Positions 51,200-64,000 of a stretch of DNA of 64,000 nt are shown piece after piece. The stretch lies in NCBI GenBank assembly GCA_963809895.1, contig CAWELD010000003.1, positions 512,001 to 576,000 of the forward strand, written 5' to 3'. This stretch comes from an uncultured Gemmatimonadales bacterium. GTDB taxonomy: Bacteria; Gemmatimonadota; Gemmatimonadetes; Longimicrobiales; Gaopeijiaceae. The notes under the pieces were generated by a model. That model saw only the letters and a program-made list of their open reading frames with translations, had not been told where the DNA came from and did not search any database. Each line of letters starts with the position of its first letter. The first letter of the stretch is position 1. The position numbers were made by a program, and so were the translations under genes.

Positions 51200-52473
51200 T
51201 GCGGGCACGGTCGAAGGGTTCGTGGGGCGGGCTGGCGCTGGCGCTGTGCGTCCTGGCGGCCGTGCCGGGCGGCGCGTCGGCCCAGCAGCTCCTCGTGCCC
51301 ATGGACCGGTCGCAGGCCAATCACCTCAAGGCCTACGGGCTCACCTACTGGGTCCTGGAGCGGGGCGAGAAAGCCGAGTGGCTGCTGAACTACCGGGCGG
51401 GCTCGTTTCTGCTGCCCGACGATCCCCAGGTGCGCTCGGAGGCCGCGCTCCGGGGCGTGACGGTGGAACCGGTGGGGGCCGCCGACGTCGCGCAGATCCG
51501 GGGTGTCATCGCCGACGGGAACATGGACGCGGTGCCTCTGGAGAAGGCCCCCAAGATCGCCGTCTACTCGCCGCCCAACGCCACGCCCTGGGACGACGCG
51601 GTCACCATGGCGCTGGAGTACGCGGGCATCCCCTACGAGAAGGTCTGGGACGCCGAGGTCATGGGCGGCGAGCTCAAGGACTACGACTGGCTCCATCTCC
51701 ACCACGAGGACTTCACCGGGCAGTATTCCAAGTTCTACCTGACGTACGCCGGCGCGGCCTGGCTGCAGGAGGAGGTGGCGCGCAACCAGGAGATGGCCCG
51801 GCAGCTCGGCTTTCCCTCCGTGCCGGCGCTGAAGAAGGCCGTGGCGGTGGCGATCCGCGACTACGTGGAGGAGGGGGGATTCCTCTTCGCCATGTGCTCG
51901 GCTCCGGAGACGCTGGAGCTGGCGCTGGCGGCGGGGCCGGTGGACATCGCGGCGGCGTACTCCGACGGCACGCCGCCGGATCCCCAGGCCAACCAGAAGC
52001 TGGACTGGGGCCGGACCATGGCGTTCGAGAACGCGGAGCTGCAGACCTCGCCTTCGGTGAACGCCTTCAGTGACATCGACGGGCACCAGGTCAACACGCC
52101 CTGGCGGAAGGAGCTGGGCTACTACACCCTCTTCGATTTCTCCGCCAAATTCGATCCCGTGCCCGCCATGCTGACCCAGGACCACGAGTCGGTGCTGCCG
52201 GATTTCTACGGACTCACCACCTCCTTCGCCATGGATCGCATCAAGCCGGGCACCATCGTGCTCGCCCGTGAAGGCGACTGGGCCAAGTACGTGCACGGCG
52301 ACCTGGGGAAGGGCACCTTCACCTTCTTCGGCGGGCACGATCCGGAGGATCCGGAGCACCAGATCGGCGATCCCCCGACGGATCTGGCCCTCCATCCCAA
52401 CTCGCCGGGCTACCGACTGATTCTCAACAACGTCCTCTTCCCGGCGGCGAAGAAGAAGAAGCTCAAGACTTGA
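51199..52473 (+). CDS. Conserved secreted protein with class I glutamine amidotransferase-like fold (family I recall being labelled 'asparagine synthetase B')
   Basis: Signal peptide; HLKAYG, WLLNYRAGSF, PWDDAVT, WLHLHHEDFTGQY, GGFLFAMCSA, GHDPED, LILNNVLFPAA. Confidence 0.8.
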   Translation: MRARSKGSWGGLALALCVLAAVPGGASAQQLLVPMDRSQANHLKAYGLTYWVLERGEKAEWLLNYRAGSFLLPDDPQVRSEAALRGVTVEPVGAADVAQIRGVIADGNMDAVPLEKAPKIAVYSPPNATPWDDAVTMALEYAGIPYEKVWDAEVMGGELKDYDWLHLHHEDFTGQYSKFYLTYAGAAWLQEEVARNQEMARQLGFPSVPALKKAVAVAIRDYVEEGGFLFAMCSAPETLELALAAGPVDIAAAYSDGTPPDPQANQKLDWGRTMAFENAELQTSPSVNAFSDIDGHQVNTPWRKELGYYTLFDFSAKFDPVPAMLTQDHESVLPDFYGLTTSFAMDRIKPGTIVLAREGDWAKYVHGDLGKGTFTFFGGHDPEDPEHQIGDPPTDLALHPNSPGYRLILNNVLFPAAKKKKLKT

Positions 52474-55079
52474 GCGGTCCCACACCGGATCCGTCCGCGG
52501 CCCTGGTGGGCGTGGACGGCCTGGACGAGCCCCCCGTGGCTCCCCCGGGCCCCGCCCCGGGGGCGGAGCCCTTGCGCCTGGCGCCCGAGGCGGCCGAGCG
52601 GATCCGCAGCGAGATCGCGCGGGCCGGGGGCCGGGAGGTCTGCTTCCTGGCGTCCGTGACGCCGGCGCGCGTCGTGGTGGACCCCCGGGCGGTGGCCCGC
52701 GGCAACTACGATGCGGTCCTGGCTGCGGCCCGGGACGAACCCGGGGGTGGGGTCATGATCCACAACCACCCATCCGGGGCCCTGGAGCCGTCGCACGCCG
52801 ACCTGTCCGTGGCCGCCCGGCTCTTCGAGCAGGAGCTGGGCACCGCCATCACCGACAACCAGGCCTCCGCGCTGTACGTCGTGGTGGAGCCACCGGCGCC
52901 CCGGGTCGTCACGCCGTTGGATCCGGAGGAGCTGGGCGCGGTGCTGGCGCCCGGTGGAGCCCTCTCGCGGCGACACCCCGGCTACGAGGACCGACGGGGA
53001 CAGCGCGAGATGCTCCAACGCGTGGTGGAGGCCTACAACGACGGCGGCGTGCTCCTGGTGGAGGCCGGCACCGGAACGGGCAAGTCCCTGGCCTATCTGC
53101 TCCCGGCGGCGCGTTGGGCCGCGCAGAACAACGAGCGCACCATCGTCTCCACCGCCACCATCAACCTGCAGGCTCAGCTGGCCAGCAAGGATCTGCCTCT
53201 GGTGGCCAGCCTGGTGGAGGGAGAGCCGTCGTGGGCCCTGGTGAAGGGGCGCGGCAACTACGTGTCCATCCGCCGGGCCCGCCTGGCCAGCGCCGGCGCG
53301 CCGGATCTCTTCGAGAACGATCGCTCCAAGGAGCTCGAGGCCATCCAGGAGTGGATCGGCACCACCGACGACGGCTCGCTGGCGGATCTTCCCTTCCTGC
53401 CGTCGGACGAGGTGTGGGAGGAGGTGCGGAGCGATCCGGACATCTGCTTGCGGGGCAAGTGTCCTCACTTCCAGGAGTGCTTCTACCAGCGCTCCCGTCG
53501 GCGGGCGGCGTCGGCGCGGCTGGTGGTGGTGAATCACCATCTGCTCTTCACCGACCTCGCCGTGCGCCGCGCCACGCAGAACTGGACCCAGTCGGCGGTG
53601 CTGCCCGCCTACAAGCGCGTGATTCTCGACGAGGCGCACAACGTGGAGGACGCGGCCACGTCGCATCTGGGCGTGGAGGTGACCCGGAGCGGTCTCTTCC
53701 GGGTGCTGTCCCGGCTCGATCGGAGGGGCAAGGGCGTGTTGGCCGCGGTCCAGGAGTCCCTGCCCCGCGACGGCGGGCGCGGACAGGACCTGCGGCGGCG
53801 CATCGAGGAGCGGGTGCGGCCCGCGGTGGACGACGCGCGGGCCACGCTGGAGCTGTTCGTGGACGCTCTGGAGCCCTTCGTCATGGCCCGCACGGAGGTG
53901 GAGGGCGAAGCGCTACGCATCGGCGGCCAGGGGGAGGGAGCGGTCCCCGAGCCCATGGGTCAGGACGCGGTGCGGGAGCGCCTGCGGGGGTTGCAGGCGG
54001 CCTTCCAGGCCCTGGAGCGAGAGGTTGGATCGCTGCGCCGGGCGGTGGAGATGGACGAAGCGCTGGAGGAGAGCCTGGAAGGTCGCCTCCTGGACCTGCG
54101 CAGCGCCGAGCGCCGCCTGAGCGCGGCGCAGGCGGGCCTGCAACTCGTGCTGGAGCCGGGGGACCGGGCGGACGCGTTCGTGCGCTGGCTCGAGCTCCGG
54201 GGGCGGGGGCGGAGTCGGAACCTGGTATTGGCCGCCGCCCCCATCGAGCTGGGACCCCTGTTGCGCGACAACCTGTTCGCGCGGGTGGACACGGCCGTGC
54301 TGTCGTCGGCGACGCTGTCCACGCGCAAGCGCTTCGACTTCATCCGGGACCGTCTGGGGCTGGACGCGCCGGGCCTGGCGACGCTGGAGGATCCGCTGAC
54401 GGTGCGGGAAGAGCTGGTCCCGTCGCCCTTCGACTTCGCCACCCAGACCGTGCTGGCGGTTCCCACGGACCTGCCCGATGCGCGCTCCGGGAGCGACGAG
54501 CTGCAGGAGGCCACGGCGCGCGTGGTGGAGGAGCTGGCGCAGCGCACGGGCGGAGGCCTGTTCGTCCTGTTCACCTCGCACCGGGCACTACGCCGGGTCG
54601 CCGAGTACCTGCGTGGTCGCGGGGCCGAAGCGCATTGGCCGCTCTTCGTGCACGGCGAGGACGAACGGGCCCGGCTTCTGGACGGGTTCATCCGCCACGG
54701 CCACGGGATCCTGTTGGGCACCTCGTCGTTCTGGGAGGGCGTGGACGTTCCCGGCGATCCCCTGCGGGGGTTGGTGATCCAGAAGCTCCCGTTCAAGGTG
54801 CCCACAGAGCCGGTGACCGCAGCCCGGGTCGAGGCCCTCGAGGCCCGCGGCGGGAACGCCTTCTGGGAGTACATGCTCCCGCTGGCGGCGCTGAGGCTGA
54901 AGCAGGGATTCGGCCGGCTGGTGCGCTCGACCACCGACCGTGGCGCCGTGATCCTCCTGGACGATCGCATTCTCAGGAAGCGCTATGGGCGTTATCTGCG
55001 GGACTCGTTGCCCGATGCGCCCTTGATCAAAGGGCCGTGGACCCTCCTCACGCGGGGCCTCGACGACTTCTACGGCTGA
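52470..55079 (+). CDS. DinG/YoaA family helicase with N-terminal JAB/MPN (RadC-like) domain
   Basis: REV..HNHPSGALEPSHAD; AGTGTGKS, DEAH, LFTS, FWEGVDV, KQGFGRLVR; TTG start inferred. Confidence 0.92.
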   Translation: MSGPTPDPSAALVGVDGLDEPPVAPPGPAPGAEPLRLAPEAAERIRSEIARAGGREVCFLASVTPARVVVDPRAVARGNYDAVLAAARDEPGGGVMIHNHPSGALEPSHADLSVAARLFEQELGTAITDNQASALYVVVEPPAPRVVTPLDPEELGAVLAPGGALSRRHPGYEDRRGQREMLQRVVEAYNDGGVLLVEAGTGTGKSLAYLLPAARWAAQNNERTIVSTATINLQAQLASKDLPLVASLVEGEPSWALVKGRGNYVSIRRARLASAGAPDLFENDRSKELEAIQEWIGTTDDGSLADLPFLPSDEVWEEVRSDPDICLRGKCPHFQECFYQRSRRRAASARLVVVNHHLLFTDLAVRRATQNWTQSAVLPAYKRVILDEAHNVEDAATSHLGVEVTRSGLFRVLSRLDRRGKGVLAAVQESLPRDGGRGQDLRRRIEERVRPAVDDARATLELFVDALEPFVMARTEVEGEALRIGGQGEGAVPEPMGQDAVRERLRGLQAAFQALEREVGSLRRAVEMDEALEESLEGRLLDLRSAERRLSAAQAGLQLVLEPGDRADAFVRWLELRGRGRSRNLVLAAAPIELGPLLRDNLFARVDTAVLSSATLSTRKRFDFIRDRLGLDAPGLATLEDPLTVREELVPSPFDFATQTVLAVPTDLPDARSGSDELQEATARVVEELAQRTGGGLFVLFTSHRALRRVAEYLRGRGAEAHWPLFVHGEDERARLLDGFIRHGHGILLGTSSFWEGVDVPGDPLRGLVIQKLPFKVPTEPVTAARVEALEARGGNAFWEYMLPLAALRLKQGFGRLVRSTTDRGAVILLDDRILRKRYGRYLRDSLPDAPLIKGPWTLLTRGLDDFYG

Positions 55080-56128
55080 TTCCCGGCCAGCGTCCGCTCC
55101 AGCCACGACAGGGCCCGCGGGCCGTCGGCGTCCACGGCCACCCGGGCCGGTGGCCGGTCCTGGACGACGTGGAGCGCGCCGGCATCGGGTCCGGCCGCCG
55201 TCACTGCGAGAGCCACCGAGCGTGTGTGAACCACGCCCGGATGTACGGCCTCGGCGGTGGCAAGGGGATCCCAGAGCTGGTATTGGCCGGCCTGGATCAT
55301 GGGGGTCTGGGCCTCCAGGACGCCGACGACGAAGGTCAGGGCCGGCGTGGCCGGTCCCGCGGCGGCCAGCCGCGCCACCACGGTGGAGTCCACCGGCACG
55401 CGGCTGGTGGCATCGAGTCCCACCAGGGTCACATCGAAGCCGGCGCCCAGCACGCGGTCTGCGGCACGGGGATCCACCCGGGCGTTCCACTCCGCTTTGC
55501 CGCTGGCGCCGGCATCGTCTGCCGAGGTCACGTTGCCAGGGGCCTCCAGCGACCCGAGCATGGCCACGAGACGCTGGACCCGGCGCGGCATGTCCGGGAG
55601 CGAATCGAGCGCCAGGGCCACATTGGTCAGGGCCCCGAGGGCGAGCAGCGTCACCGGACCGTCCGCATCGCGCACCGCACGGGTCATGAGGCCCACGCCT
55701 TGTGTGTCCATCTCGCCGGGTCGAGGGTCGGGGGGCGCATCGACCCCGAGGAAGCCGGCGGCGTCGTCTCGCCATGGCTTGGGAAAGAGGCGACCGCCGT
55801 CCCACGGCCGCGGGGCACCGCACGCCTTCGGCACCGGGGAGTGCCCGGCCGCGACCTCCAGACGCCTCAGGTGCGAGAGAGCCGTGGCGCAGTCGACGTA
55901 GCCCGGCGCCACCGTGATCGCGCGCACCTCGACGGTGGGTTCCCGCAGGAGAGCCAGCAGCGCGATCCAGTCGTCGGGGCCCAGGTCGGAGTCCACGATG
56001 ACGACGCGAGGTGGCGAGTCCGGGCTCTCGGGGGCATGGTCGCGGGTGCTCGGCTCTCCGCGGCACGCGGCCAGGAACGCGAGCCCCGCCGCGAAGAAGG
56101 CGGCCCGGCGCGCCCGTGTCGTGGTCAC
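55070..56128 (-). CDS. Nucleoside hydrolase (IU/IAG-NH family), lipoprotein
   Basis: Lipobox LAAC; DSDLGPDD (DxDxxxDD), LTNVA, AEWNA..DP.AA, LWDPL. Confidence 0.88.
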   Translation of the reverse strand: MTTTRARRAAFFAAGLAFLAACRGEPSTRDHAPESPDSPPRVVIVDSDLGPDDWIALLALLREPTVEVRAITVAPGYVDCATALSHLRRLEVAAGHSPVPKACGAPRPWDGGRLFPKPWRDDAAGFLGVDAPPDPRPGEMDTQGVGLMTRAVRDADGPVTLLALGALTNVALALDSLPDMPRRVQRLVAMLGSLEAPGNVTSADDAGASGKAEWNARVDPRAADRVLGAGFDVTLVGLDATSRVPVDSTVVARLAAAGPATPALTFVVGVLEAQTPMIQAGQYQLWDPLATAEAVHPGVVHTRSVALAVTAAGPDAGALHVVQDRPPARVAVDADGPRALSWLERTLAGNQP

Positions 56129-57294
56129 GAGCCGTCGGGTGCGCGCCACAGGCGGCCGGTCAGGAGCACGAGGGCCAATCCCAGGGCGGCGAAGAGCAGC
56201 GCCAGCACCGGAATGGCCCGACGGGCTCGGCGGATGCCGCCCACCGGCGCCGGCCCCGGCACCGTGCGCAGTGACCAGACCGACCAACGTGTCACGCCCG
56301 AGTCTCTGCGGAAGCCCAGGATCCGGTCGGGTCGCAGGAAGCCCACGAGCAGGACGTCCGTATCGGTCTGCGCCAGTCTGCGACCCAGCGTATCGAGCAG
56401 CTCCACCCTGGACGCCCAGGCGCGTTCGGGATCCGAGACGGCGTAGGTCGGGCCTCCGGGCGCCGCGGAGGGAACGGGCGTGAGAGCGCGGGCCCAGTCG
56501 GGGCCTGCCCTTCGCACGAGGGTCACGAGATTGCCTTCGTCGTCCGAGGTGATGTCCAACATCTCCGGTGGTGCCGGGTGGTCGGGAGCCGGCGGTGGGG
56601 TCTGCGTTCGGGGTGGGAACCAGTCCGTCTCCACGACCAACGAGTCCACCAGCGTGCCGGAGGCGTCGATACGGTCGATGTGGTAGGCCGTGGGCATGAT
56701 CGCCCAGGCGCCCCCTCGCGGGTCCGTGGTGAGCCGTCGCTGAAGGAGGTAGACGCCCCGCCAGTCCAGGGGCTGTGCCGGCCCCGAGGAGCCCTGCGCG
56801 ACGCCGTCGGGCGAGAGGAGGTGAAAGGGCCTCGCCTCCTGTTCGCCGCTCCCTTCGGCGCGGCCCGAGGTCAGCCAATCGCCCCGCTCCAGGCGAATCG
56901 CGTCCTGCACCTGGAGAGGAAGGGGCGTGCGCCGCACCACCCCACCGTCGATGTCCAGCACCACCAGCGCCGGGCGAGCGGCGTCGAAGGCGAAGATGGA
57001 ATCCCCCGTCACCAGCAGGGAGCCGATGGAGTCCAGCGTCGTCGGTCCTCCCAGCCGTCGGAGGAAGCGCCCACCGGGCGAGAAGACCGCGATCCACCCG
57101 GGCGCGCCCTCGGACACGGCATAGAGCCGTCCCTCGGTGTCCATGGCCCAGGCCCGCGGCGCACCCAGGGCACCGGGTCCGTCCCGGTCCCCGAACGATC
57201 CCGCCTCCTCGAGCTCGAGGTGACACGGCGGGCAGATCGCCTGGGCGCCGGAACCCGGCGCAAGAAGCAGGAACAGGCCGAGGAGTGGAGTCAT
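56125..57294 (-). CDS. Secreted beta-propeller-like protein with C-terminal membrane anchor
   Basis: Signal peptide; DGPGAL, IAVFSPGGRFLRRLG, GDSIFAFD; C-terminal hydrophobic helix. Confidence 0.72.
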   Translation of the reverse strand: MTPLLGLFLLLAPGSGAQAICPPCHLELEEAGSFGDRDGPGALGAPRAWAMDTEGRLYAVSEGAPGWIAVFSPGGRFLRRLGGPTTLDSIGSLLVTGDSIFAFDAARPALVVLDIDGGVVRRTPLPLQVQDAIRLERGDWLTSGRAEGSGEQEARPFHLLSPDGVAQGSSGPAQPLDWRGVYLLQRRLTTDPRGGAWAIMPTAYHIDRIDASGTLVDSLVVETDWFPPRTQTPPPAPDHPAPPEMLDITSDDEGNLVTLVRRAGPDWARALTPVPSAAPGGPTYAVSDPERAWASRVELLDTLGRRLAQTDTDVLLVGFLRPDRILGFRRDSGVTRWSVWSLRTVPGPAPVGGIRRARRAIPVLALLFAALGLALVLLTGRLWRAPDGS

Positions 57295-58604
57295 GGCCGG
57301 CCGAATTTCGTCTCGATCTCCACGCCGCAGTCGCGCAGGAACCGCGTCGGCAGCTCTCCGCCGATGAAGACGAACACCTGGCTCGCCGGAACCTGGATTG
57401 CCTGGCGATCCCGGTCGAGGACCACCTCGCCCGGGCGGATCTCCGTCGGCGTCGTTCCCAGGAGAGCTTCCACGGACCCTCGCGAGATCGCCTCCTCCAC
57501 GCGCTCGTGGTTTCGCGGCTTGATGCGGCTGAACGCCTCACGTCGATACGAGATACGGACCTCGTTGCCCGGCTGTTCCGAGAGTGCCAGCGCGGCTTCC
57601 ACCGCGGAGTCGCCGCCGCCCACCACGAGAATGCGATCGGTGGCGTACGCTTCCGGCTCCCGGAGCGAATACGCCACGTGGGGAGCGTCTTCGCCAGGGA
57701 CACCGAGCTTGCGGGGCACCCCTCGCCGCCCGATGGCCAGCACCACCCTGCGGGACTCGTAGATGCCCCGGTCGGTGATCACCCGGAAGTGGAGATCGCC
57801 GACACGATCCACCGACTGCACCGTCTCGCGTGTGTGAACATCGAGGTCGCCTTGCGTGGCGATGTCCTCCCACAGCTCGATGAGCTCCTCCTTGGAGATC
57901 TCGCGCAACGGCAGCTTGCCGTAGCCCGGGACCTGCACCGGGCGCGTCATCACCAGCTTCTTCCGGGGATAATGGCGCACCGTACCCCCGAGATCCTCCT
58001 TTTCCAGGGTAACGGCGGTCAGTCCCCGATGCCGGGCGGTGAGCGACGCCGAGAGGCCGGCGGGACCGCATCCGACGATCAGCAGGTCGAGCAGGTCGCC
58101 GGCAGTGGTGCCACGCCCCTCTTTCAGAATGCCCTCGATGCACTGCCGGCCCTGCTCGAAGGCGTTGGCCACCAGTCCCATGCCGCCGAGCTCTCCCACG
58201 ACGTAGAGCCCGCGCACGTTGGTCTCGAAGTTCTCCTTGACCCGGGGCAGGTCCACGCCTCGCGTCTCGGTTCCGAACACGAGCTGAATGGCGTCCATGG
58301 GGCAGGAGCGCTCACAGAGGCCGTGGCCGATGCACCGCGCCGGAGCCACGGCCACGCCCTGGCCGGCGCGGAGGCCGAGCACCTCCTCGGGGCAGACGCT
58401 CACGCAGTTCGCGATCCCGATGCAGCGCTCGGGGTCGACCACCGGATGCAACGAGACGGGCTCGTGGAGACCGTATTTCAGAGCCTCCACCTCCGCGTCG
58501 TCGGTCTGGCGCTCCTTGCGGCGCATGCGGATCAGGACCGGGAGCGTCACGAGGGCGGTGAGCGCCGACCCGATGCCCCAGACGATGAGCATGTCCCGGT
58601 CCAT
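57291..58604 (-). CDS. Membrane-anchored ferredoxin-domain FAD/NAD(P)H oxidoreductase (TrxB/YpdA-like)
   Basis: N-terminal TM; CIGIANCVSVCP and CIGHGLCERSCP; GCGPAG; GGGDSA..YRR; no CxxC redox pair in the reductase domain. Confidence 0.88.
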   Translation of the reverse strand: MDRDMLIVWGIGSALTALVTLPVLIRMRRKERQTDDAEVEALKYGLHEPVSLHPVVDPERCIGIANCVSVCPEEVLGLRAGQGVAVAPARCIGHGLCERSCPMDAIQLVFGTETRGVDLPRVKENFETNVRGLYVVGELGGMGLVANAFEQGRQCIEGILKEGRGTTAGDLLDLLIVGCGPAGLSASLTARHRGLTAVTLEKEDLGGTVRHYPRKKLVMTRPVQVPGYGKLPLREISKEELIELWEDIATQGDLDVHTRETVQSVDRVGDLHFRVITDRGIYESRRVVLAIGRRGVPRKLGVPGEDAPHVAYSLREPEAYATDRILVVGGGDSAVEAALALSEQPGNEVRISYRREAFSRIKPRNHERVEEAISRGSVEALLGTTPTEIRPGEVVLDRDRQAIQVPASQVFVFIGGELPTRFLRDCGVEIETKFGRP

Positions 58605-60205
58605 CAGAACGTCCTCGACAGCGAGAGGCTCAGGTATTGGCCACGCAGGCCGCCGCCCCATTGGCTCCTCAGCCGAGCGGACAACCGGAGACCCGTCGCC
58701 AACGGTGCGTCGGCGCTGAGCTCGCCCGCGTGCGTCGTGGACACGTAGGTCGGGTAGTCCGCCCGATAGAAGCGGTACCCCAGGCGCATGCGGGCTCTGC
58801 CCAGGCCGAAGAGCAGCGCCGGCGCCGCCGAGATCACGCGTCCATCCTCGTTGCTCCAGAACGAGGCGGAGCCCGCGAATCCCAGGCCCGAGCCCCGCGG
58901 GGGTGCGGACAGCGAAGTCGTGGACCCCCAGGACGTGCGCCCGTCTTCCTGCCGGGAGGCGGACGCGTCGAGTCCCAGGTATGCGCCTCCGAGCCTGAAT
59001 CCGAGCCCGCCGTCCACCCGATCGCGGCGGGGCCCGAACGTCTCGGACAGCGTCCACAGGCGGTACCGCTCGTCGCGCGCCACACCCACCCGCAGATCGA
59101 CCACCGGCGAGAGCCTCACGGTGCTGCGCATGCGTAGCTCCGACACCTTCCAGCTTCCGTCGTCGGGATCCCGGTCCACCTGGAGATCCTGGCTGAGTCG
59201 GAAGGGTCCCGCGGCGATCCGCTGACTCAATCCGAGAAAGGTGTGCCCGTTCAGGTCGGTGGTCGGCCGCACCGTGTGCGCGGACAGGTCGGCCCGCCAG
59301 CGCCAGTCCCGGCCGCGCCGCTCCGTGTCGACGAAGACCGACGCCTTGGGGAGCTCTCCACTCGGCGTCTCGTTCCAGCGGTCCGGCTGAAAGCCCACCA
59401 GAAACCCGACGCCGAGGGATTCCGGTCCGTAGCGAACCATGAGCCCGTCCCAGAAGCCGCTGTAGGATTCGGCGGGGCTGTAGAAGCGTCCCAGCGTCAG
59501 GCGGAGTGGGAGGCTGGTGAAGCGGCGATCCAGCGCGGCCTCGTAGACTCGTACCGACGTCGGGCGGAGGAGCGAGGCGTCCTGGGCCGCATAGCGATAC
59601 GCCACGCGGGCGCTGGTGCGCAGCTCGAATCCCCCGACGGCGTCCGGCACGGTGACGTCGAAGCGCAGCGCGGGTGTGGCGAAGGTGCGATCCACGCTCT
59701 CGGGATCGGTCCTGCCCACCTGGGTCGTGGAGTGGCTGGCAGCGAGATCCAGACTCCAGCGACCGTGCGCGGGGCTCGATGCCACGGGCGAGGACCGCTC
59801 CGCGGGTTCGGGGGATTCGGCTGCAGGCGTCGTCGGCCTCGTGTCGACCTTCGGTGCGACCCGTGCCGCCCGCACCATGTGCAGGACGATCGCGCTTCCC
59901 CGGAGCACGTCCAGAGGGGGGCCCACGAAGCTCAGCACGGCACGGGTCGGCGTGCTCGCGGTGACCACCACCACGCCGGACGTGGCCGCGTCGTCCGCCA
60001 GCTCCACGGCGAGGGTGTCTCCGGTGGCCAGACCCTGATCCGTGCCGATGTCGAGGTATAGCGTGTTTCCCGCCACCTGCCGGACGGCGACGGTGAGGGG
60101 TGCCGGCGGCGCGTCCTGCGCCTCGAGGGGCGAGCGCGCCGCGAGCGCGACCGCCACGGCGCACGTCAGCGCCGAAAGGCGTGGGAACACCCCCATGCGC
60201 GCCAT
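58604..60205 (-). CDS. Predicted outer-membrane beta-barrel (porin-like) protein
   Basis: Signal peptide (..LEA|Q), many amphipathic strands, C-terminal YLSLSLSRTF with terminal Phe; next to multiheme cytochromes. Confidence 0.78.
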   Translation of the reverse strand: MARMGVFPRLSALTCAVAVALAARSPLEAQDAPPAPLTVAVRQVAGNTLYLDIGTDQGLATGDTLAVELADDAATSGVVVVTASTPTRAVLSFVGPPLDVLRGSAIVLHMVRAARVAPKVDTRPTTPAAESPEPAERSSPVASSPAHGRWSLDLAASHSTTQVGRTDPESVDRTFATPALRFDVTVPDAVGGFELRTSARVAYRYAAQDASLLRPTSVRVYEAALDRRFTSLPLRLTLGRFYSPAESYSGFWDGLMVRYGPESLGVGFLVGFQPDRWNETPSGELPKASVFVDTERRGRDWRWRADLSAHTVRPTTDLNGHTFLGLSQRIAAGPFRLSQDLQVDRDPDDGSWKVSELRMRSTVRLSPVVDLRVGVARDERYRLWTLSETFGPRRDRVDGGLGFRLGGAYLGLDASASRQEDGRTSWGSTTSLSAPPRGSGLGFAGSASFWSNEDGRVISAAPALLFGLGRARMRLGYRFYRADYPTYVSTTHAGELSADAPLATGLRLSARLRSQWGGGLRGQYLSLSLSRTF

Positions 60206-62624
60206 CAGTCCCCCCGTCCTCTGGGGTGGCACGCAAAGCATGCGGACGTCTCGTAGGTGTAGCCCGACACTTCGCTGTGGTCACGGTCGGTGTTGGAGCG
60301 CGTGTGGCAGGTCGTGCACGAGAAGCTCCCGAAGTCGCCGGGCACGGTGTGACAATCCGCGCACTGATTCCACCTGCCCTGATGGGATCCAGAGTAGATC
60401 GGGAAGAACTGGGCGTCGTGATCGAAGGACGTCGCACTCCAGGTGTCCACGTTGTGGCAGGACAGGCAGGTAGTGGGGAAGCCGTCCGTGGCGTGCTCGC
60501 CGTCGTAGTCGCTCTGATGGCAGGCCACGCAGTCGTCCTGGGTGGCGGGGTCGGGGAAGAGCAGCGTGTAGCCGGGCACGGCGTGGCAGTCGGTGCAGGC
60601 GGCGGAGGCGTGGCTGCCCACGAGCTGGAAGCCACCGGAGAGCGCGACGTGGTCGACCTGGGCGCCGTCCCAGCCGGTCTGGGTGTGGCAGGACAGACAG
60701 GTCGTAGGGAAGCCCGAGCCGGCGTGCTCGCCGTCGTAGTCGGCCTGATGGCAGGCCACGCAGTCGTCCTGGGTGGCGGGGTCGGGGAAGAGCAGCGTGT
60801 AGCCGGGTACGGCGTGGCAGTCGGTGCAGGCGGCGGAGGCGTGGCTGCCCACGAGCTGGAAGCCTCCGGAGAGCGCGGCGTGGTCGACCTGGGCGCCGTC
60901 CCAGCCGGTCTGGGTGTGGCAGGACAGGCAGGTAGTGGGGAAGCCGGCCGTGGCGTGCTCGCCGTCGTAGTCGGCCTGATGGCAGGCCACGCAGTCGTCC
61001 TGGGTGGCGGGGTCGGGGAAGACGCAGCGTGTAGCCGGGCACGGCGTGGCAGCCGGGCAGGCGGCTGAGGTGGGCGCCGAGGAGCGGGAAGTCCGGAGGC
61101 GGCGTGATCGAACTCGGCGTCGTCCCAGCGGTCGACGGTGTGACAGGTGAGGCAGGTGGTAGGGAAGCCCGAGCCGGCGTGCTCACCGTCGTAGTCGGCC
61201 TGGTGGCAGGCCACGCAGTCGTCCTGGGTGGCCGGGTCGGGGAAACGCAGCCCCCCGCCCTCGAGGTGACAGGCCGAGCAGTCCTGACTCTGGTGGGCGC
61301 CGAGGAGGGCGAATCCGGTGGTGGCGTGATCGAAGTCGGCGTCGTCCCAGCGGTCGACGGTGTGACAGGTGAGGCAGGTGGTGGGGAAGCCCGAGCCGGC
61401 GTGCTCACCGTCGTAGTCGGCCTGGTGGCAGGCCACGCAGTCGTCCTGGGTGGCGGGGTCGGGGAAACGCAGCCCCCCGCCCTCGAGGTGACAGGCCGAG
61501 CAGTCCTGACTCTGGTGGGCGCCGAGGAGGGCGAATCCGGTGGTGGCGTGATCGAAGTCGGCGTCGTCCCAGCGGTCGACGGTGTGACAGGTGAGGCAGG
61601 TGGTGGGGAAGCCCGAGCCGGCGTGCTCACCGTCGTAGTCGGCCTGGTGGCAGGCCACGCAGTCGTCCTGGGTGGCGGGGTCGGGGAAACGCAGCCCCCC
61701 GCCCTCGAGGTGACAGGCCGAGCAGTCCTGACTCTGGTGGGCGCCGAGGAGGGCGAATCCGGTGATGGCGTGGTCGAAGTCGGGATCCGACCAGGTGTTC
61801 TGCGTGTGGCAGGAGAGGCAGGTGGTGGGGAATCCCGAGCCACCGTGCTCGCGGTCGTAGTCGGCCTGGTGACAGGACGTGCAATCCTCAGGTCCTGCCG
61901 GCGAGAACAGGGTCGCCATGCCGGGGGTCTGGTGGCAGCTCGCGCAGCGCAGTCCCTGGTGGGCTCCCAGGAGGGGGTACCCTCCGCTCGCTCCGAGGTG
62001 ATCGAAGGCGGGTGCGTCGCTCCATCCGACGGTACCGTGACACTGCGTACAATCCATGGGATAGCCCGCAGCCACGTGGTCCAGGGTCTGGGCGCTACGA
62101 TAGGCCGATGCGTGGCATGAGGCGCAGTCGGTGGGGAGGGCCGTGAAGGCCCCTCCGGAGTCGTCGGTGTGGCAGCTCGCGCACGTCACCTGCAGGTGCG
62201 CGCCGGTGAGGGGGAACGACGTGCGGGCGTGCACGGCTTCGCCATCGACATCGTGGAAGGAGTCCGTGCTGTGACAGACTGTGCACTCCTGCACCATGCG
62301 CCCGTCATGTGGGTCTTCGTGGCAGCTGGTGCAGTCGTCCATGTCCACCTGCGGCGCGGCGAAGCGGAGGTCCGTGTGGCAGGTGCTGCATTCCAGCGCG
62401 CCGTGGGTTCCGGTCAGCGGCGTCGGGTGCGTGAAGCGGAGCGTGTCTCGAAGCGGGGTCCACGCCGAGGACGTATGGCAGGCCGCGCAATCCAATCCCT
62501 CAGGGAGCGCGCCATGCGGATTGGTGGACGAGGGACGCTGGCCGAGCGTGGCCGCCGGAAGGCTGGCGGAGGCGAGCAGGGCGAGGGTCAGCGGACGAAG
62601 CACGGACCGGACGAGGGAGCTCAC
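60205..62624 (-). CDS. Large multiheme cytochrome c (30 intact CxxCH plus one disrupted), frameshifted near 61020-61100
   Basis: Signal peptide; 19 CxxCH before and 11 after the frameshifted junction. Confidence 0.92.
60455..61050 (-). repeat. Intragenic tandem repeat B, 231-bp unit (77 aa, 3 hemes), about 2.5 copies
   Basis: cagtcgtcctgggtggcggg recurs at 60530, 60761 and 60992. Confidence 0.9.
61105..61770 (-). repeat. Intragenic tandem repeat A, 222-bp unit (74 aa, 3 hemes), 3 near-identical copies
   Basis: cgtcccagcggtcgacggtg recurs at 61121, 61343 and 61565. Confidence 0.92.
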
Positions 62625-64000
62625 GCGGCACCTCCGTGGCAGTCCGTGCACGAATGACCCAGCGGGCGATAGCGCGTGATGCTTACGCCCCCGGGACCCG
62701 GCTCGGACCGATGGCAGGCGACACACGCCAGCTCCTGATGCACACCCTCCAGGTCGAATCCCGTGACGCGATGATCGAAGTCGGGAATGGCAAAGCTCGT
62801 CTGCTCGTGGCAGGAGTCGCAGCGCCGCCCGTCGAACTGATCGCCGTGGGGATTGTCACCCGCGTGGCAGCTGAGGCAGCTGCTCAGCCCCGACCTGCAT
62901 GACGAAGCGCGTCCCTTCCCGTCGGTGGCACTCGCCGCAGGCGACCGTCAGGTGGGCGCCTTCGAGCTGGAAAGCGTTGTCCGCGTTGTGGCGGCCGATG
63001 TCGTACTGCGCCGGGAGCCATCGATCCTGTCCGTGACAGTCCGTGCACGCGTCGGTGCCGTCGGTGCCCGCCAGGACGCCCTGGTGCTCGTCCTCGTGGC
63101 AGCTGGTGCAGCGCTCGCTCTCCGGCGCGGGGAACGTCCGCGAGGCGGTACCGTCGACGTAGCGGACATGAAGGCCCGGAAGGCCCGCGGCCGTTTCTCG
63201 GTCGTGACACGAGGCGCATGGTGTTTCCGCGTGTCGACCCTGGAGCACGAAACCGGTCGACGCGTGATCGAAGCGGCCCTCGACCCTCGATCGGTTCACC
63301 GGCAACCAGCCGGCGGTGCTGTGGCAGGTGGTACACGCCCCTTGCATGGCCCCGTCGTGCCGATCCTGGTGGCAAGCGGTGCACGTGCCGAACGAGAGAG
63401 GTCGAAAACGCACCGAGACGGGCTCACTCGGCGGGTCCGGGCTCGTGGCAGGAAGAGCAGTCCAGCGCCCGGTGCCGCCCCGTGAGCCGATAGCGCGCGC
63501 GATCGTGGTCGAACCCCGGTGCATCTTCCCAGCTGCCGGTGTCGTGGCATGCGGTGCAGGCCCGGTCGGAGAACTCACCGGCGTGCGGGTCATCGTCCTC
63601 GTGACACGCGGCGCACGTGTTCGGGAGCCCCAGGAACGTCCGGGCCAGCGCCGTGGGGTCCGGCCTGAAGCGGCGCACCGCCGCATCGACGATGCGCTCG
63701 GGGGCGTGACAGTCTCCGCATTCGAGCTCGACATGGCCGCCGTCGAGGGCGAAGCCCGCGTCTTCGTGTGGGAAGCTCGCCGTGTCCAGGCGCACCAGGG
63801 CGAAATCACGCCCGAAGTGCTCCTTGTGACAGGTCGCACAGTCCTCTTCGTTCAGCGAGGCGTGATAGCCTTCTCCACGATCCAGCCGCTGGCGGAGAGG
63901 CTCGTGGCACTCCAGGCACAGGGCGGGGGAGATGCCGGGCTTGCGGAGCTCGTGGCAGGACGTGCACTTCCGCAACCCCTCCAGCTGGGCGTGGGGCGCG
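62621..64000 (-). CDS. Multiheme cytochrome c (>=17 CxxCH), 5'-partial, with two frameshifts (~63435 and ~62890)
   Basis: 7+6+4 CxxCH in three successive frames; the last frame reads CLSCH..CDSCH..CVACH..CTDCHGGAA* and its stop overlaps the next start (GTGA). Confidence 0.9.

Follow-up and report, generated by a model that had tools for sequence, protein, structure and literature searches.

We analysed a 64,000-nucleotide stretch of DNA from an uncultured Gemmatimonadales bacterium (contig CAWELD010000003.1, positions 512,001 to 576,000; here called the window), one gene of which encodes a membrane-anchored iron-sulfur (Fe-S) flavoprotein. Sequence, profile comparison and model confidence support the view that its YpdA-type fold is circularly permuted. 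We consider it fairly probable that this protein takes electrons from NAD(P)H in the cytoplasm and passes them, by way of FAD and its Fe-S clusters, to a two-heme-b inner-membrane protein (IMP), and from there to multiheme cytochromes. The predicted function is well supported by comparative genomics, and the flavoprotein likely supplies the cytoplasmic component so far missing from a widespread, uncharacterised heme wire.

The gene (57291..58604; unless stated otherwise, all features described here lie on the minus strand) is an intact open reading frame (ORF) of 437 amino acids (aa) plus stop, comprising a transmembrane (TM) anchor, a ferredoxin domain and the permuted YpdA-type flavoprotein. 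Its ATG overlaps the TGA of an upstream 545-aa ORF by one base; at the other end, its stop and the start of a downstream 389-aa ORF share the sequence ATGA, which places the gene in a compact minus-strand operon. The G+C content is ~70% over the window, and this composition produces the long ORFs of other frames as artefacts. The order of the elements was verified by translation of each sub-range: a TM helix, a two-motif ferredoxin domain, a segment of ~50 residues, the GxGxxG FAD part, the NAD(P)H domain with GGGDSA, and the end of the chain. Both the ORF and this order agree with what an earlier note on this DNA had read from its letters.

The N-terminal TM helix, MLIVWGIGSALTALVTLPVLI (residues 5-25, 58530..58592), is hydrophobic; the corresponding helix of the AlphaFold2 (AF2) model covers residues 2-43. 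It is followed by a basic patch, RMRRKER (residues 26-32, 58509..58529), predicted to lie on the cytoplasmic side, and by the ferredoxin domain (residues 53-113, 58266..58448), which Pfam recognises as a Fer4 dicluster domain at residues 53-108, with scores above the cut-offs for both Fer4_7 (36.1 versus 27 bits) and Fer4 (33.4 versus 21.1 bits). The segment that appears to have moved (residues 114-164, 58113..58265) comprises two strands and a helix, carries the pattern FETN..G.Y..GE, with the Glu at residue 138, and contains FETNVRGLYVVGELGGMGLVANAFEQG. A linker (residues 163-172, 58089..58118) would join the ancestral C- and N-termini and has the lowest predicted local distance difference test score (pLDDT) of the model, 74. 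The flavoprotein core (residues 173-437, 57294..58088) comprises the GxGxxG FAD part (GCGPAG, residues 178-183), the NAD(P)H domain and the return strands. Within it lie the second dinucleotide motif, GGGDSA, which would serve NAD(P)H (residues 329-334, 57603..57620), the triplet YRR, a candidate 2'-phosphate site (residues 353-355, 57540..57548), VFVFIGG (residues 410-416) and CGVEI (residues 426-430). Pyr_redox_3 matches the core with 150.8 bits at residues 175-432 (profile positions 1-283 of 305), and with the stop after residue 437 the chain ends where canonical enzymes go on.

The missing end was traced in several ways to the segment upstream of the core. The YpdA model TIGR04018 aligns its positions 1-265 of 316 with residues 173-434, after which the protein ends. 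A phmmer search against Protein Data Bank (PDB) chains returned a second stretch, in which residues 123-147 are paired with residues 277-300 of Bdr (KENFETNVRGLYVVGE versus KETYETNIENCYIAGV). We built a hidden Markov model (HMM) of canonical YpdA from 28 of the 29 YpdA genes in the genome of the window and its relatives, one being left out for a start-finding failure. This HMM matches the core in all 39 sequences of A1, an alignment of diverse family members of ~440 aa, and in 35 of them it gives a second match, placing positions ~272-327 on residues ~110-170 in a constant register. When the profile of residues 108-172 from the 39 members was compared with the canonical YpdA profile using hhalign, it fell on template columns 305-324 (E 1.2e-7, probability 94%), while the core profile covered columns 33-306 (E 2.3e-45). 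The two ranges abut, so that the junction is exact.

The AF2 model of the whole protein, built on A1, has a mean pLDDT of 92.9 and a predicted template-modelling score (pTM) of 0.86. Both Foldseek and VIA-align ranked Bdr/YpdA first among structures. With VIA-align, model residues 170-436 align with residues 2-270 of the 323 of 7a7b_A (Z 23.4, root-mean-square deviation 3.6 Å, 264 residues aligned), and the last ~50 Bdr residues (271-323) have no sequential partner, the template-modelling score of the sequential alignment being 0.67 when normalised to Bdr; both programs are sequential aligners, unable to place a moved segment there. AF2 models the segment as a strand (117-120), a second strand (133-136) and a helix (145-162), an order that, in our reading of the model, would be that of the canonical C-terminal FAD-domain element. 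Residues 108-437 folded alone, with a second alignment of 64 sequences (A3), reach a pLDDT of 91.8, with 91 and 96 for the strand blocks of the segment and 80-95 for its helix blocks; the confidence of the moved segment is thus independent of the ferredoxin domain. We propose that the moved strand-strand-helix would complete the FAD domain and that Glu138 would act as the aspartate of the canonical GD motif.

The signal from single sequences is weak and weighs against a permutation. A Pfam scan of residues 110-172 gave positions 258-291 of PF07992 at E 0.096, plus a chance-level match to an unrelated family, the second HMM matches have independent E-values of 8e-5 to 8 when taken individually, and only 19 columns of the segment are alignable in hhalign; profile comparison was needed to reveal the homology. 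Such figures could also be produced by a linker or remnant that merely resembles the C-terminal element, the FAD domain being incomplete or completed in trans. We regard this as very improbable, as the register is identical in 35 of 39 members, the segment profile joins the core exactly, G137, E138, G141 and L144 are invariant across phyla, and the canonical order of strands and helix is modelled with high confidence with or without the ferredoxin domain. The homology of residues 114-164 to the C-terminal FAD-domain element of YpdA and thioredoxin reductase (TrxR), and with it the circular permutation that the earlier note had suspected, is supported by sequence, by profile-profile comparison, by the sequential structure alignments and by the confident models of the moved segment. 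The note had further read a Glu in place of the usual Asp and an absence of the CxxC redox pair; E138 is indeed present and invariant in the family alignment, and the positions of the only cysteines of the protein (61, 67, 71, 91, 97, 101, 155, 179 and 426) leave no CxxC in the flavoprotein part. A copy of the moved motif at the C-terminus, where canonical enzymes carry it, was seen in none of 39 aligned and none of 63 locus-derived homologues, so that the refuting outcome named in the earlier note did not arise.

The arrangement is shared by a large family. A homologue search over 50%-identity representatives retrieved 6792 proteins at E<=1e-3 and 803 clusters at E<=1e-30, and homologues with 62-75% identity over the full length exist. 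Most of the best 150 representatives span query residues ~15-436, that is, the whole arrangement. A GE-type motif lies at most 60 residues upstream of GxGPxG in 127 of these 150 and in 119 of 120 close homologues; the search pattern matched 130 of the 150 representatives, and several of the 20 misses have insertions or truncations. All members of A1 end soon after the GGxLP...GV element, and the short C-terminus recurs in 63/63 locus-derived sequences. Judged from these sequences, the permutation characterises the family and extends over hundreds of 50%-identity clusters from many phyla.

Fifteen positions are invariant in A1 (C61, C67, C71, C91, C97, C101, G137, E138, G141, L144, G178, G180, P181, G183 and G329), while His94, Ala182, G330, G331, A334 and R354 of the YRR triplet are at least 90% conserved; in A3, G329, G330, G331 and R354 are all invariant. 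Cysteine is conserved in A1 only at the six Fe-S ligand positions. A canonical YpdA is encoded elsewhere in the same genome (C3:3203889-3204842, 401.8 bits, model positions 1-312), so that the permuted gene is an extra, paralogue-like copy and not a replacement. The linker of the ancestral termini is an insertion site in relatives: in P0192 (873 aa) it holds an insertion of ~230 residues that includes an FHA domain, and in P0202, P0212 and P0166 it is longer by 20-37 residues.

The ferredoxin domain departs from the canonical pattern of two CxxCxxCxxxCP motifs. Six of the eight cysteines are present, with Ile64 at the second position of motif 1 (CIGIANCVSVCP, residues 61-72, 58389..58424) and His94 at that of motif 2 (CIGHGLCERSCP, residues 91-102, 58299..58334). 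A motif pair was recognised in 133 of the 150 representatives. Among these, the second position of motif 2 is His in 116, as it is in 120/120 close homologues, and CxxHxxCxxxCP is a hallmark of the family. The second position of motif 1 is Cys in 68/133 and Ser in 56/133, and in close Gemmatimonadota homologues it is Ile (63), Thr (48), Ser (5) or Val (4) and never Cys. The claim that both motifs lack the second Cys is therefore correct for this protein but needs amending for the family, in which the His is conserved whereas the position of the Ile is variable. By textbook ferredoxin ligation, motif 2 would bind a [4Fe-4S] cluster through three Cys and His94, while the cluster of motif 1 would have three Cys ligands and be either a 3Fe-4S cluster or one with a non-Cys fourth ligand.

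Gene context was counted at the best 80 loci of a one-genome-per-species scan (543 relatives). These loci come from Gemmatimonadota, Bacteroidota, Ignavibacteria, Gamma-, Beta- and Alphaproteobacteria, Acidobacteriota, Planctomycetota, Nitrospirota, Zixibacteria and Calditrichota. Cultured carriers among them include Arenibacter sp., Thermobacterium salinum, Ideonella sp. and Undibacterium sp. ORFs containing three or more CxxCH motifs are present at 70 of the 80 loci, typically one of ~20 hemes and one of 20-60, as opposed to none of the 29 canonical YpdA loci that served as a control (109 kb in all). Two W...H(x13)H motifs occur in one ORF at 65 of the 80 loci, and all 65 such ORFs are homologous to each other and to an ORF in the genome of the window (E <=1e-15). 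An HMM of this IMP family is positive at 71 loci, the match lying within 400 nt of the flavoprotein gene at 47, in the same ORF at 4 and farther away at 20.

The IMP gene of the window's genome encodes 307 aa and was identified by homology and motifs at G000:C3:576685-577641, 685-1641 nt past the window end, where it heads the same minus-strand operon as the flavoprotein gene. Its product has five hydrophobic segments and carries W108/H112/H126, W276/H280/H294 and S148-G149..G152; in the IMP alignment the two Trp, the four His and the SGxxG motif are invariant or nearly so. The suggestion that the flavoprotein is an entry or exit point for a heme chain thus gains support from gene context, with the connecting di-heme-b protein encoded just outside the window.

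Proteins of this kind are known from the predicted heme wires called PCC3. In the passages devoted to it, PCC3 is treated as four genes tied to the quinone pool (PMC5566968; PMC10734462; Sideroxydans CL21 preprint), and its inner-membrane protein is likened by He et al. 2017 (PMC5566968), where they describe it, to the two-b-heme ferric-reductase domain of NOX/FRE. The flavoprotein is not itself the PCC3 'conserved inner membrane protein', an identity that we considered and rejected, the latter being a separate five-helix protein. In Proteobacteria the flavoprotein gene is usually divergent from the PCC3 operon, which may explain why the link between the two was overlooked. Components of neighbouring ORFs obtained by single-linkage clustering were discarded, as they merged the flavoprotein with cytochromes and returned antisense ORFs of its gene as 'families'.

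Natural fusions bear on both topology and partnership. Of the 150 representatives, 63 stand alone, 34 carry b-heme motifs on the C-terminal side (forms of ~745 aa) and 4 on the N-terminal side, 12 are fused to c-heme domains (7 C-terminal, 5 N-terminal) and 37 have other extensions, including TPR; some, of 1000-1377 aa, continue C-terminally in long stretches with TPR repeats. Attachment of c-type heme is periplasmic, and FHA domains are cytoplasmic. The orders FHA - TM - seven c-hemes - TM - ferredoxin-flavoprotein in P0205 and TM - ferredoxin-flavoprotein - TM - 34 c-hemes in P0191 would thus place the flavoprotein module in the cytoplasm, with the N-terminus of the anchor helix outside. The same topology had been deduced in the earlier note from RMRRKER, and the fused forms speak for it. 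Furthermore, some forms are fused to 20- or 34-heme domains or to the b-heme protein, which would make the flavoprotein a stoichiometric, permanent part of the wire. Fusion to the b-heme protein in 38 of the 150 representatives, together with adjacent genes at 47 of the 80 loci, is the pattern expected of direct partners. A complex prediction with the flavoprotein, the IMP, two hemes and two 4Fe-4S clusters returned a score of 0.01 and a mark of 0.32, which speaks neither for nor against binding.

The same inventory could be read as that of a flavoprotein acting alone at the membrane surface, as an NDH-2-like NAD(P)H:quinone reductase or a reductase of soluble substrates, with an indirect link to the cytochromes through the quinone pool or regulation. 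The 63 stand-alone representatives are compatible with this, the extensions of FHA, TPR or ankyrin type may indicate a regulatory or scaffolding role, and the PCC3 model, in the passages that set it out, assumes exchange with the quinone pool (PMC5566968). We nevertheless find this account unlikely, given the covalent fusions and gene adjacency described above; no quinone-site feature was identified.

For direct transfer to the b-heme protein, the following sequence of steps is proposed. NAD(P)H would reduce the FAD of the permuted flavoprotein, and a preference for NADPH is suggested by YRR...R. The anchor would hold the two Fe-S clusters near the membrane, where they would reduce the inner b-heme of the five-helix protein. 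The outer b-heme would then reduce the ~20-heme periplasmic cytochrome, from which electrons would pass to the barrel protein and the larger cytochrome, outward to the cell surface. Flavoprotein and IMP would in this way form a split, two-component NOX-like exporter. Outward flow is favoured because the path from NAD(P)H (~-320 mV) to the hemes and extracellular acceptors is downhill and runs along the membrane potential, whereas the reverse would be strongly uphill.

Electrons might instead enter from extracellular Fe(II) or minerals and travel through the heme wire and the b-heme protein to reduce NAD(P)+ at the flavoprotein, which would serve lithotrophs. PCC3 has been proposed as a conduit for Fe(II) oxidation and is present in iron and sulfur oxidisers, according to the passages on it in PMC5566968 and PMC10734462, and Thiodiazotropha, Sedimenticola, Endoriftia and Nitrosomonadales are represented among the related loci. 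By standard potentials, however, the step from Fe(II) couples (~0 V or above) to NAD(P)+ (-320 mV) would be uphill by more than 0.3 V, inward movement would oppose a membrane potential that is negative inside, and neither a proton pump nor a bifurcating partner, either of which could serve as a coupling subunit, was seen among the conserved neighbours. Many carriers, moreover, belong to Bacteroidota, Ignavibacteria and Gemmatimonadota, groups not known for lithotrophic iron oxidation. We judge inward flow to be improbable. The broader proposal, that a permuted YpdA-type flavoprotein with a His-ligated ferredoxin domain and an anchor is the cytoplasmic half of an unrecognised bacterial NOX-like machine, and that PCC3 conduits are NAD(P)H-fed exporters, is put forward tentatively, with slightly less than even confidence.

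Several observations count against the electron-exporting role. An IMP match is absent from 9 of the 80 loci and a heme-rich ORF from 10; several of these loci are short or lie at contig edges, and L012, L015, L017 and L047 have long flanks. The occurrence among relatives is patchy, a similar partial match being found in 6 of 31 related genomes, of which the window's own alone was inspected. The three-Cys cluster may be a 3Fe-4S cluster, differently ligated or absent. The direction of flow is argued by reasoning, and the NADPH preference from YRR as a candidate 2'-phosphate motif. Some neighbours would allow other functions: genes for an ankyrin/Sel1 protein of ~670 aa (378-805) lie beside the flavoprotein gene at 19 mostly proteobacterial loci, mostly directly downstream on the same strand (e.g. 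L012 11237-13138 and L019 11275-13290; Pfam was run on two), and genes of the CcmH/CycH type with TPR adjoin it at 11 loci and CcmF at 8, all proteobacterial.

The CcmF and CcmH/CycH paralogues stand beside the flavoprotein gene in some Alpha- and Betaproteobacteria (L055 5703-7691 and 8714-9976; L038 1429-3411; L057 8392-9921; L032 11265-12563) and suggest a dedicated heme-attachment system for the giant cytochromes. In the genome of the window, a TPR-like ORF, recognised by reading its translation, follows the IMP gene. Taken together with the fact that the closest fold, YpdA/Bdr, is that of a disulfide reductase, these neighbours raise the idea of a maintenance or maturation device, in which a cytoplasmic reductant keeps hemes or apocytochrome thiols reduced during assembly of the giant cytochromes and has no respiratory role. 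This seems to us rather unlikely, though a little less so than the quinone-linked and inward-flowing alternatives. The Ccm neighbours are limited to a minority of proteobacterial loci, no conserved Cys lies outside the Fe-S motifs, the Cys of the Bdr GGGPCG motif aligns with Ala182, and the fusions to heme domains point to a permanent part of the wire.

The operon has several other genes in the window. The multiheme cytochrome c genes (60205..63999) hold 47 CxxCH motifs by count and give Cytochrome_C7 and MtrC-like Pfam matches. All five ORFs of the window with three or more CxxCH have their motifs between 60240 and 63966, and none lies elsewhere in it. The heme-bearing frame of the 47 motifs changes four times (1, 2, 0, 2, 1 going downstream), one change falling between 61185 and ~61000, beside three near-identical repeats of ~74 aa; overlapping genes, frameshifts or assembly errors in repeats could account for this. 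The 545-aa ORF upstream of the flavoprotein gene (58604..60241), for which a Pfam scan gave no match, is a candidate for the outer-membrane (porin) component; it has homologues at the same place in the clusters of relatives. Downstream, a translationally coupled 389-aa ORF (56125..57294) encodes a protein that begins with a signal-like sequence, contains one CPPCH motif and has a hydrophobic stretch towards its C-terminal end; neither a Pfam match nor a homologue in the 80 related loci was found for it.

Past the window end by ~1.7 kb, and 60 nt upstream of the IMP gene, lies a c-di-GMP-I-GGC riboswitch aptamer on the minus strand (RF03167; G000:C3:577665-577744, L081 2481-2560), which scores 62.4 bits (gathering score 59; E 1.5e-13). 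Related GEMM-I riboswitch variants control exoelectrogenesis genes in Geobacter. An 869-aa ORF on the plus strand (52470-55079), with a RadC-like JAB region and DinG/Rad3-type helicase domains (DEAD_2, Helicase_C_2), is unrelated to the flavoprotein. A search of sequencing runs found no RNA dataset; the DNA datasets found were partial (share 0.26 or less).

The main text of He et al. 2017 (PMC5566968) nowhere uses the terms FAD, ferredoxin or 4Fe-4S. Hoover et al. 2023 (PMC10734462) list the periplasmic PCC3 cytochrome in 42/87 and, in the passages concerned, draw no link between PCC3 and the flavoprotein. Our literature search, which covered passages of PMC10734462, PMC13741234 and bioRxiv 10.1101/2025.02.27.639646 among others, returned no description of this link, supplements that possibly list the gene lying outside the search. 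Likewise, no paper was found, supplements again lying outside the search, that describes a thioredoxin-reductase-type flavoprotein as naturally circularly permuted. A natural permutation that defines a large multi-phylum family, with a joint of the old termini that accepts domains, would be useful for studies of fold evolution and for engineering. For the predicted PCC3 heme wires, the flavoprotein would be a specific partner on the cytoplasmic side and bring with it a candidate electron donor, and such a donor could reverse the assumed electron direction in a system often cited for iron oxidation. If they are indeed exporters, PCC3 conduits would serve mineral or humic reduction, redox balancing or the production of extracellular superoxide.

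Among known enzymes, YpdA/Bdr (TIGR04018; PDB 7a7b, 7apr, 7a76) is the best match in both sequence and fold. The two share their FAD and NAD(P)H domains and the lack of a CxxC, and the dinucleotide motifs of YpdA/Bdr are found here, GxGPxG being invariant (G178, G180, P181, G183) and GGGDSA conserved. The protein nevertheless falls outside the family as TIGR04018 defines it, scoring 159.3 bits against a cut-off of 339.9 bits over model positions 1-265 of 316. It also departs from the canonical order of FAD N-part, NAD(P)H domain and FAD C-part, its C-part (residues 114-164) preceding GxGxxG. At the position of the invariant GE of the permuted family, canonical YpdA from the same phylum reads AGV, and the TM helix and ferredoxin domain are additions relative to YpdA/Bdr. 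Two enzyme types of this fold were considered as candidates and rejected. The Cys of the Bdr GGGPCG motif has a catalytic role, and a Bdr-type thiol reductase was dismissed since this residue is replaced by Ala182, which is Ala in at least 90% of the family. A thioredoxin reductase (TIGR01292) was dismissed on the absence of CxxC outside the Fe-S motifs and a score of 76.9 bits against a cut-off of 343.45.

The TrxR-type ferredoxin-NADP+ reductases (B. subtilis YumC 3lzw, T. thermophilus 2zbw, R. palustris 5ygq) have the same fold (Z 18-19) and carry out the exchange between NADPH/FAD and an iron-sulfur protein that is proposed here. They act on a separate soluble ferredoxin and have the canonical order, whereas here the ferredoxin is fused, a membrane anchor is present and the fold is permuted. 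The Fe-S flavoproteins of the GltD/NfnB type, including PRK12771 (NF009410), also combine a flavoprotein of two dinucleotide domains with Fe-S clusters in one chain, and the ferredoxin domain (residues 61-110) matches NF009410 positions 514-564 of 566, in its C-terminal dicluster part. They differ in domain order and subfamily and have neither a permutation nor a membrane anchor. Histidine-ligated [4Fe-4S] clusters, such as the distal one of [NiFe] hydrogenases, are likewise held by three Cys and one His, in a cluster that would lie at a surface where electrons leave or enter. In the present protein the putative ligand, His94, takes the place of the second Cys in a classical CxxCxxCxxxCP ferredoxin motif.

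With PCC3, as outlined in passages of PMC5566968 and PMC10734462, the locus shares a five-helix protein of ~300 aa, a cytochrome of ~20 hemes, a larger cytochrome and a candidate outer-membrane protein. The features given there for the inner-membrane protein (~300 aa, five TM helices, two WX3HX13H motifs and SGXXG) are all found in the 307-aa ORF, and those for multiheme cytochromes in the 47 CxxCH motifs at 60205-63999. The flavoprotein would be a fifth component, pointing to NAD(P)H. Finally, NOX/FRE and E. coli MsrQ-Fre follow the same logic, in which a cytoplasmic NAD(P)H flavoprotein feeds two stacked b-hemes that deliver electrons to the other side of the membrane. There the dehydrogenase has the FNR fold, while here it has the TrxR/YpdA fold and Fe-S clusters, and the acceptor would be a multiheme wire and not O2, Fe3+ or MsrP. 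Pfam matches of 47 IMPs are weak (DUF4405 in 17/47, Ni_hydr_CYTB in 6/47, Ferric_reduct, PF01794, in 5/47). Membership in the NOX/FRE superfamily, for which PF01794 is paired with an FNR-type domain, was rejected on account of the TrxR/YpdA-fold dehydrogenase, and the likeness would be one of working principle.

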